Virus record (IMG/VR): IMGVR_UViG_3300029248_000010
Span: 1 to 53,317 of that record
Length of the DNA stretch: 53,317 nucleotides
Reading direction: 5' to 3' (one strand)
Source: a virus
This document shows, in pieces, positions 36,285-37,099 of the stretch. Position 1 is the first letter of the stretch, and every line of letters starts with the position of its first letter. Under the pieces are notes generated by a model. That model saw only the letters and a program-made list of their open reading frames with translations. It was not told the DNA's origin and ran no database searches. A program made the translations under genes and the position numbers.

Positions 36285-36472
36285 AATGATTCCTCCTTCT
36301 TCAAAATGCCCTGAATGGACTCCAGTCGTCTATCAATTTCTGTTATGAAATAGGTAGTGCGAATATTAGTGAATTTTGCAGCTTGGGCTTCAGTGCATAC
36401 AACTCTTGCATCATTGAGCTGAGCAAGGACGGCGTTGTAGTCGTCCTCTGAAAGGACTATCACCTTAGTCAC
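36281..36472 (-). CDS. Hypothetical protein
   Basis: 63 aa from GTG 36472 (GGAGG 9 nt upstream, GTGACTAA overlap with Spo0A-C gene stop). Confidence 0.4.
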   Translation of the reverse strand: MTKVIVLSEDDYNAVLAQLNDARVVCTEAQAAKFTNIRTTYFITEIDRRLESIQGILKKEESF

Positions 36473-36839
36473 AGCTCTTTTCCTCCATCCGGATCCGGCG
36501 CTCAAGCTCATACTTGAGACCATACAAGAAGTCACCATTGACGATACTGCCAGACTTGTCACGGAAGACATTGCCGAACACCTTGTAAATATCTACATAG
36601 GATCCTCGGTTCAGAGTGGTCTGGATAAAGGTTCTGATACAGCGCTCGACCCTGCTGATTGTGGTGCTGTACTGAATTGAGATGGCAGGGTACAGCTCTG
36701 TGGTGATGCCGAGTCTGCGCGAGGAGTTATACAGGAGCTTCACACCATAGGTAACATAGTCGAAGCCATTCATGTTGATAGGACATCCTAAGTCCTTGAG
36801 AATACTGTGAATGTGGTTGGTGAGTTCTAAATCTGTCAT
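36465..36839 (-). CDS. Receiver-less Spo0A C-terminal (DNA-binding) domain protein
   Basis: 124 aa; ELYPAISIQYSTTISRVERCIRTFIQTTLNRGS...VFGN...VNGDFLYGL parallels B. subtilis Spo0A [32 protein letters not shown]...PTNSEFIA. Confidence 0.8.
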   Translation of the reverse strand: MTDLELTNHIHSILKDLGCPINMNGFDYVTYGVKLLYNSSRRLGITTELYPAISIQYSTTISRVERCIRTFIQTTLNRGSYVDIYKVFGNVFRDKSGSIVNGDFLYGLKYELERRIRMEEKSCD

Positions 36840-36862
36840 GGTTATTCTCCTTTACAGTGTTA

Positions 36863-37099
36863 TTAGTCTTTATTGTTACGATCGATGATGGTTGTTGGCT
36901 GACTGGCCGACAGTACGACCGTGCCGTTGGTCATAATGACGACAGATCTGGTGCGACGACCATAGGTGGCATCAATGATTTTGTTATTATCCTTGGCGTC
37001 CTGCACAAGGCGCTTGACTGGAGCCGATTCAGGGCTCACAATAGCAATGACGTGATCAGTGTTGACAAAGTTACCAAGACCAATGTTGAGAGAGTTCAT
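36863..37099 (-). CDS. remA: RemA (DUF370) family regulator homologue
   Basis: 78 aa; [67 protein letters not shown] is near-colinear with B. subtilis RemA INIGFGN...[11 protein letters not shown]...[10 protein letters not shown]...LSAVQPET. Confidence 0.88.

Follow-up and report, generated by a model that had tools for sequence, protein, structure and literature searches.

Genes for a receiver-less Spo0A DNA-binding domain and a RemA-like protein in the first early operon of a gut phage

The window analyzed here is the 53,317-nucleotide IMG/VR virus record IMGVR_UViG_3300029248_000010 (positions 1 to 53,317), a phage genome in which two adjacent minus-strand genes encode a stand-alone effector domain of the sporulation regulator Spo0A (Spo0A_C) and a RemA-like protein (Table 1). 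The two ends of the window share a 99-bp exact direct repeat (1-99 and 53219-53317), and this terminal overlap identifies the window as a complete circular assembly of ~53.2 kb. Its hallmark genes encode terminase, portal, major capsid protein, tape measure protein, a family-A DNA polymerase, primase and helicase; no integrase was found among the window proteins, no tRNA genes were found in the window and an Rfam search of it returned zero matches. The phage is apparently virulent and brings replication and nucleotide genes of its own. Comparison with GenBank phage DNA gave only short, low-coverage stretches, from four unannotated faecal contigs, and the protein-level relatives of the window all lie on contigs from human faecal or gut metagenomes. 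Among cultured phages, the nearest by capsid are the Clostridium phages CS266P1-4, at 65% identity. Across 185,579 species genomes there was no close prophage copy of the window RemA, only one weak chromosomal match. Relatives are referred to below by L-numbers.

Table 1. Coordinates of the two regulator genes, the surrounding control elements and the genes of the hypermodification-like module in the window
Feature	Position	Strand	Details
Stand-alone Spo0A_C (effector/DNA-binding domain), 124 amino acids, receiver-less	36465-36839	-	Pfam PF08769
RemA-like protein, 78 amino acids	36863-37099	-	Pfam PF04025
Codons of RemA residues 16 and 57	36929-36931 and 37052-37054	-	
NrdG-like radical-SAM activase	37778-38338	-	Pfam Fer4_12, E 2.1e-46; within the first early unit
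Terminator-like hairpin, 12-bp stem and T-run	35165-35192	-	First strong one on the minus strand; new promoter-like sites follow
Early promoter TTGCTT-17-TATGAT	39373-39401	-	Read from sequence; predicted to drive the first leftward unit
Phased A/T tracts (an 18-nt repeat in two copies, 21 bp apart)	39406-39445		Directly upstream of the early -35
Non-coding control region, 1.1 kb	39211-40351		Separates the divergent early operon from the small-terminase/structural operon; several repeat families
Three TCGAAAA motifs, 24-25 bp spacing	40037-40092	+	3' part of the extended 0A box
Perfect 0A box TGTCGAA	40207-40213	-	Only one in the control region; ~30 nt upstream of the rightward promoter-like -35
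Promoter-like TTTACT-17-TATAAT	40244-40272	+	10/12 matches; precedes small terminase and structural genes
5-hmdU (5-hydroxymethyldeoxyuridine) DNA kinase	31316-32326	-	Pfam HMUDK_hel, E 8.6e-64
TET-associated glycosyltransferase	30507-31319	-	
dCMP deaminase	30022-30504	-	
Radical SAM/SPASM gene	19328-20302	-	
DUF1599 gene	18946-19350	-	
Thymidylate-synthase-like gene	18221-18949	-	
HAD-like gene	17459-17935	-	

Two regulator genes in one early unit

The Spo0A_C protein matches its Pfam family with E = 2.6e-20, scoring 72.8 bits where the cut-off is 25; the match spans residues 10-108 and, of the 104 model positions, 1-100. The protein also contains the Spo0A C-terminal signature ELYPAISIQYSTTISRVERCIRT. 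Against TIGR02875, which describes full-length Spo0A over 262 positions, it matched only positions 145-249 and, with 65.7 bits, did not reach the equivalog cut-off (200 bits). As the gene 23 nt upstream is that of RemA, there is no receiver domain or phospho-acceptor (Asp56) for this protein. The solved Spo0A C-terminal domains (1LQ1 and 1FC3) are matched by phmmer with E = 1.4e-13 and are also the top Foldseek matches, with template modelling (TM) scores of 0.77-0.90, of an AlphaFold model with a predicted local distance difference test (pLDDT) value of 93.3, which displays the six-helix fold with its helix-turn-helix. All of the recognition-helix residues V212, E213, R214, I216 and R217 (Bacillus subtilis numbering; SRVERxIR) are present, and in every class of homologue they hardly vary, as seen across 22 receiver-linked proteins and 109 that stand alone or have a short extension. 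The likeness to the Bacillus effector domain thus lies in the fold and the recognition helix (S-R-V-E-R-x-I-R), whereas the window protein is only 30-33% identical to it, is receiver-less and has a partly changed sigma-A-activating stretch (B. subtilis 227-240), in which G227, F236 and G237 are kept and I229Y, S231D, S233Y and V240F are substituted. The ratio of non-synonymous to synonymous substitution rates (dN/dS) is 0.11-0.16 in two pairs with a synonymous rate (dS) of ~0.5, and 0.43 in the closest pair, where substitutions are few (dS 0.11).

A scan of 1.84 billion representative proteins for Spo0A_C returned 3,439 clusters at E <= 1e-3. Identity to the window protein exceeds 50% in its own cluster alone, and among the 150 best representatives nothing outside that cluster, full-length Spo0A included, is more than 44% identical. 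Domain architecture was sampled in 162 sequences (these 150 representatives and the remaining close relatives), comprising 41 stand-alone proteins (<=140 amino acids), 66 with a short N-terminal extension, 27 tandem arrays of two to six domains, 22 of the response-regulator type and six that were not placed (four without a domain match and two others). The window protein carries residues of the stand-alone class (e.g., D174, Y178, C215 and N238, B. subtilis numbering), and these comparisons mark it as an old member of a large stand-alone/tandem family, not a recently truncated host spo0A. The tandem proteins reach 959 amino acids, an architecture not described before to our knowledge. Beyond the window's cluster, the nearest Spo0A_C is 42% identical (L016, 4465-5387); its gene stands directly after a Sigma70_r2 gene on a phage-like contig, on which a Bro-N gene is also present.

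The RemA-like protein matches its Pfam family with E = 3.5e-32 and 110.8 bits (cut-off 26) and passes the PRK04323 cut-off (108.1 versus 87 bits) but not that of the NCBIfam RemA equivalog NF046064 (113.1 versus 140 bits). Geobacillus RemA (7BM2) is matched with a phmmer E value of 3.6e-22, and the AlphaFold model (pLDDT 90.4) superimposes on 7BM2_A with a TM score of 0.92 and a root-mean-square deviation of 1.8 Å, confirming the RemA fold, which is LytTR-related. RemA requires arginines R50, R51 and R53 to bind DNA and to activate eps (PMC8481266), and the window protein has all three, as R48, R49 and R51; in an alignment of 19 RemAs, of which 18 belong to the phage-type clade, R50 and R51 are invariant and R53 is nearly so (one K, one Q). 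The octamer-stabilizing contact R18-D59 is absent, its place being taken by H16/T57, and in Geobacillus RemA the R18W substitution converts 8-mers into 7-mers (PMC8481266). Within the phage RemA clade this pair covaries, being R/D in 71, H/D in 24, Q/V in nine and H/T in six of the 120 closest homologues. The dN/dS against close relatives is 0.04-0.10, a sign that this gene, like that of Spo0A_C, is under purifying selection.

In all, 4,184 RemA homologues were recovered at E <= 1e-5, and 111 of the 120 closest, many of them on 47-55 kb contigs, carry the signature IGLGN. Compared with RemA (YlzA) of B. subtilis and G. thermodenitrificans (7BM2; PMC8481266), the window protein has the same fold, ~50% identity and the three arginines, but it is phage-borne and shorter, lacks the C-terminal tail, has H16/T57 and bears two signatures of its clade, IGLGN and IIDRN. 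A chromosomal RemA from a metagenome, encoded in a yicC-remA-rpoZ-gmk context, is 68-70% identical to the window protein, which should therefore recognize DNA of the same type. The cellular yicC-remA-gmk-rpoZ context (see also PMC8041843) was seen in L049, L050 and L015; the window gene lies instead in a phage early operon.

The early promoter and the first strong terminator-like hairpin (35192-35165) place RemA and Spo0A_C together within the first transcription unit, of ~4.2 kb. The -35 of this promoter falls below the threshold of the promoter scan; the promoter, its spacer and the transcribed leader are kept in L009 (TTTACT-17-TATAAT there), the RemA of which is 78% identical. The unit also holds the NrdG-like activase, a weak Lar-like anti-restriction open reading frame (ORF) and several small uncharacterized ORFs, and the first early unit is the usual location for host-takeover genes. 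A conserved partner gene upstream of RemA was considered and rejected, the ORF overlapping the RemA start being only 13-18% identical between sub-lineages. The early leader contains a perfect 13-nt inverted repeat (GGTTGAGCTGAGG at 39268-39280 and CCTCAGCTCAACC at 39350-39362, 69 nt apart); the leader sequence is kept in L009 and has no Rfam match.

A sequence-only reading of the window had already named the two ORFs as a Spo0A C-terminal domain without receiver or phospho-acceptor and as RemA, and had put both in the first early operon behind the promoter at 39373-39401. The family, phmmer and AlphaFold matches, the restriction of the TIGR02875 match to positions 145-249, the retention of the promoter in L009 and the position of the terminator all bear this out, and the background it drew on is sound, namely that the Spo0A domain acts independently of phosphorylation (PMC3485338) and that RemA activates matrix genes (PMC8481266).

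Distribution across the lineage

The lineage was sampled through an independent marker, the DUF2786/DUF7168 gene, which fetched 16 relatives, and the neighborhood of the sampled region was scored in each. The RemA contigs have a common layout: the two terminase genes, small and large, share a strand, and 1.1-1.5 kb of non-coding DNA separates them from a divergent early operon, ~2 kb into which RemA is found. RemA is present and syntenic in 14 of the 16 relatives, with 38-78% identity across lineage members outside the window's own sub-clade. It thus ranks as near-core in this lineage, in which it has been inherited vertically.

Spo0A_C behaves differently, being present in eight of the 16 relatives, seven of which also have RemA in the same early region. 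The two genes are directly adjacent only in the window's sub-clade (L001, L008 and L017-L019), Spo0A_C lying 0.35-2.3 kb downstream of RemA in L023/L024 and L027-L029, and unrelated genes occupy the slot after RemA in other relatives. Further versions were observed between the 5-hmdU kinase and dCMP deaminase genes in L051 (7042-7569) and L052 (2551-3078), both of 175 amino acids, and in L062 (8733-9164); in the window this slot holds the glycosyltransferase gene. Divergent Spo0A_C versions thus occupy at least three positions in the lineage, and those at other sites are 33-39% identical to the window's, as against 65-69% for the RemAs. These patterns indicate a recurrent accessory gene, either fast-evolving or repeatedly acquired, beside a core RemA.

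Two points of the sequence-only reading need to be revised in this light. The side-by-side arrangement that it called unusual is indeed limited to one sub-clade, yet both genes recur in the early region of seven of the 16 relatives; and its description of them as phage copies of host master regulators does not suit a near-core RemA or a Spo0A_C that belongs to a stand-alone family and, among the 150 best representatives, shares <=44% identity with any protein from outside its own cluster. Its assignments, lack of a receiver, operon position and promoter stand. Its further proposal, that the phage manipulates the sporulation and matrix programmes of the host, is plausible and has a competitor in phage-internal regulation.

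PHROGs contains no RemA family, only eight of 50,697 GenBank phage records (all unannotated faecal contigs) encode RemA, and a search of the literature on RemA/DUF370 in phages found nothing relevant and turned up no role for RemA in any virus; nor was functional follow-up on phage Spo0A_C found in the literature.

Proposed roles: host reprogramming or phage-internal control

Our preferred reading, to which we give a probability of roughly 0.45, is that the phage reprograms its host at the Spo0A/RemA decision point, the net effect probably being to block sporulation. Both regulators would be made right after infection from a host-sigma-A-type promoter, with no need for an activating signal. 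The receiver-less Spo0A_C, its whole DNA-reading helix kept, would occupy 0A-type boxes without phosphorelay input; the isolated Spo0A DNA-binding domain is known to bind its legitimate targets without phosphorylation (PMC3485338). RemA, its fold and three DNA-contacting arginines kept, would form rings that wrap AT-rich DNA in the manner of cellular RemA, which activates matrix operons by DNA wrapping (PMC8481266). Their predicted targets would lie mainly on the host chromosome, and the decision between growth, matrix and sporulation would be removed from host control. At 0A boxes Spo0A_C would compete or repress independently of phosphorylation, such that the cell would be held out of sporulation while the lytic cycle completes.

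The apparent lifestyle supports host reprogramming, because an apparently virulent phage, with no integrase and no close prophage copy of its RemA found, would gain from a vegetative host. A precedent is provided by phage sigF/sigG homologues that lower spore yield, in work cited in PMC10294663. The canonical 0A boxes are also informative. The sequence-only reading had proposed a search for TGTCGAA-type boxes in the phage as a check, and on the phage side this gave six TGTCGAA sites in the window against 6.3 expected. When control regions were compared across 26 lineage members, TGNCGAA did not follow the presence of Spo0A_C. Canonical 0A boxes, neither enriched nor tracking Spo0A_C, were therefore rejected as a signature of phage-internal targets, which argues against targets that are purely internal.

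A number of observations weigh against host reprogramming. A RemA that is near-core and syntenic fits an essential phage function better than accessory host manipulation, and the RemA regulon is essentially known from Bacillus only. The replacement of R18-D59 by H16/T57 makes the oligomeric state of the phage RemA uncertain, and as the sigma-A-activating positions also vary among true Spo0As, activation and repression cannot be told apart from the sequence. The evidence on 0A boxes and RemA sites covers phage DNA only. Within the control region, moreover, TCGAAAA half-sites occur six times against 0.7-1.3 expected from local composition, one of them 17 bp upstream of the early -35 and one overlapping the rightward (late) -35, and the perfect 0A box lies upstream of this late promoter.

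These last sites count in favor of the main rival, a serious one that we nevertheless consider the less likely of the two, in which the two proteins are phage-internal regulators. RemA (core) and an interchangeable Spo0A_C (accessory) would time early versus late expression via the 1.1-kb control region; for example, Spo0A_C would shut off the early promoter and activate the rightward one via 0A-like boxes, and RemA would wrap the phased A/T DNA. Retention of a syntenic RemA in 14 of 16 relatives, at 38-78% identity among members outside the window's own sub-clade, speaks for this, as does the enrichment of TCGAAAA beside both promoters, the triplet with its 24-25-bp spacing being kept only in L008, the bearer of the same Spo0A_C type. 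However, TCGAAAA was picked post hoc, after inspection of the sequence, and the conservation in L008 is confounded by relatedness. Half of the relatives have no Spo0A_C in the sampled region, which rules it out as an essential switch, and the 0A-like motifs of the control region, like the unenriched canonical boxes, do not track Spo0A_C across sub-lineages.

The phased A/T element at the early -35 also favors an internal role. Its core, TTTTTGTAAAAA, is present in the control regions of the relatives examined, shared 9-mers occur in all six control regions compared, and the element is conserved in L009, with which it was aligned by eye. The tracts are similar to the AT-rich periodic DNA protected by RemA and are candidate curved or RemA-type DNA; phased A/T tracts are also frequent at strong promoters. 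The -10 region of the rightward promoter-like site is common to relatives.

Two further considerations bear on internal control. The phage encodes no RNA polymerase or full sigma factor, and the sole other recognizable regulator is a 76-residue ORF (10989-11219, plus strand) with a helix-turn-helix resembling that of sigma-70 region 4 (Pfam Sigma70_r4, E 5e-9 in a set of unannotated ORFs; the match was assigned to this ORF by elimination and sequence motif). It is placed after endolysin/holin-like genes and may be a late-gene regulator. In addition, there is a precedent in phi29 and Nf, which host Spo0A controls through 0A boxes in the phage DNA (PMC2731898). The likeness is that of a Spo0A-type protein linked to phage promoters, the window having its 0A box and TCGAAAA motifs near the two main ones. 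In contrast, phi29 uses the phosphorylated Spo0A of its host and encodes none, whereas the present phage brings a receiver-less version and its canonical boxes are unenriched genome-wide.

The principal repeats of the control region weigh against internal control, being present whether or not Spo0A_C is and, unlike RemA sites, having no 10-bp periodicity. One, TCCGACTTTTT, is present in six copies in both orientations (39577-39976) versus ~1 expected, and relatives L009-L014 have an analogous repeat, AAAAATAGGCGGA, in 7-14 copies in the same region beside the small terminase gene; both may be iterons, pac sites or operator sites. They were rejected as Spo0A_C sites because relatives that lack Spo0A_C have the analogous multi-copy AAAAATAGGCGGA. 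A second repeat, CCATGGAGTAAT, occurs in four copies (39530-39889), including the perfect 18-bp palindrome ATTACTCCATGGAGTAAT at 39634-39651, a variant of which (CGTGGAGTA) is found in other relatives. By its sequence the palindrome looks like an operator for a dimeric regulator; as a Spo0A_C site it was rejected, as it also occurs in the Spo0A_C-less relative L002.

Possible links to DNA hypermodification or forced development, and known systems

Besides the regulators, the minus strand of the window carries a thymidine-hypermodification-like module in two parts (17459-20302 and 30022-32326), and from this gene content the phage DNA is probably hypermodified. The 5-hmdU kinase gene directly follows RemA in the distant lineage members L042, L044 and L047 and lies within 1 kb of it in L043, L051 and L052. 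The contigs that have both genes form one super-lineage, however, with primases 67-73% identical, and L062, L068 and L069 keep the kinase with no RemA within 6 kb. The linkage is suggestive but not compelling, and the idea of an obligatory coupling of RemA to the kinase is weakened by these three relatives and by the shared ancestry. Two other genes were noted in passing: a DNA methyltransferase-like gene (23835-24572, minus strand; phrog_757, E 2e-61; no Pfam match) that overlaps the end of the DNA polymerase gene, and, in the early or middle region, one for a Hydrolase_2 domain protein (32323-33018, minus strand), i.e., a cell-wall hydrolase of the SleB/CwlJ type, a type listed among phage-carried sporulation genes (PMC10294663).

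Hypermodification enters into two further readings. In the first, which we rate as rather improbable, this lineage of ~50-kb gut siphoviruses has domesticated both regulators, a core RemA wrapping the hypermodified genome or the control region and a swappable Spo0A_C acting as an early-to-late switch via 0A-like boxes; if that were true, the "sporulation genes" of viromes would not necessarily be aimed at host sporulation. In the second, a special case of the internal role that appears unlikely to us, RemA organizes, marks or regulates the 5-hmdU-derived hypermodified DNA as a wrapping protein, for which TF1 of SPO1, a phage HU homologue that prefers hydroxymethyluracil DNA, offers a comparison. 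The proximity of kinase and RemA genes and the presence of a full hypermodification-like module on the same strand as RemA are in its favor. Set against it, that proximity may simply be inherited within the super-lineage and is missing in the three kinase-positive relatives, the rarity of RemA in GenBank phage records implies that characterized hypermodifying phages are without it, and the hypermodification papers do not mention RemA/DUF370.

Were the pair to force development instead, a constitutive Spo0A_C and RemA would switch on early sporulation or matrix genes, and the genome would become trapped in a spore or the cell embedded in matrix. The components are plausible, in that the receiver-less domain can act without phosphorylation in B. 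subtilis (PMC3485338, PMC10294663), Spo0A (via SinI/SinR) and RemA converge on the same Bacillus matrix operons (PMC8481266) and spore entrapment is known for phi29 (PMC2731898). Such an outcome sits badly with a phage that looks strictly virulent and has its own replication and nucleotide machinery, and the phage sporulation-sigma homologues tested so far, as cited in PMC10294663, lower spore yield. Furthermore, the matrix circuit known from Bacillus has not been established for gut Clostridia, and in C. difficile a neighboring signature gene affects sporulation, not biofilm (PMC8041843). We think forced development improbable, to about the same degree as a RemA dedicated to hypermodified DNA. 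Finally, recently captured, decaying host genes (the sequence-only reading had thought of pseudogenizing captures with disrupted key residues) or chance ORFs are refuted by dN/dS values well below 1, intact key residues, high-confidence folds, the deep conservation of RemA and the <=44% identity of Spo0A_C to the best representatives outside its own cluster.

The proposed host reprogramming by the Spo0A_C-RemA pair has its nearest counterpart in the work of Schwartz et al. (mBio 2023, PMC10294663), who reported 29 receiver-less spo0A homologues from human-gut viromes, with no function. Those homologues likewise consist of the effector domain only, come from uncultivated gut phages and led to the same hypothesis of phosphorelay-independent sporulation control; that study has no RemA and no genomic context, whereas here the gene is seen in a complete genome, in an immediate-early unit, in a defined lineage and as part of a broad stand-alone/tandem Spo0A_C family. 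The sigF/sigG homologues cited in the same paper resemble the window pair as host developmental transcription factors on phages of spore-formers. They differ in that they belong to another protein family and, as cited there, redirect RNA polymerase and have been tested experimentally, while the window pair is predicted from its sequence to bind operators or wrap DNA. The occurrence of receiver-less Spo0A in gut phages has been known since 2023 (PMC10294663); RemA and the lineage-wide pattern are the new part, and we found no paper that describes a RemA conserved within a lineage of phages.

Spore-forming Clostridia account for much of the human gut community, and sporulation both transmits them and shelters them from phages. 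The stand-alone Spo0A_C proteins form a large, old family that may serve phage-internal regulation, so a virome match to "spo0A" should not always be taken as a stolen master regulator. The near-universal retention of RemA in the lineage suggests a function that is worth testing, and a widespread lineage with a near-core RemA and, often, a receiver-less Spo0A provides easily clonable candidates for how phages may override or exploit the sporulation or biofilm decision of their hosts.

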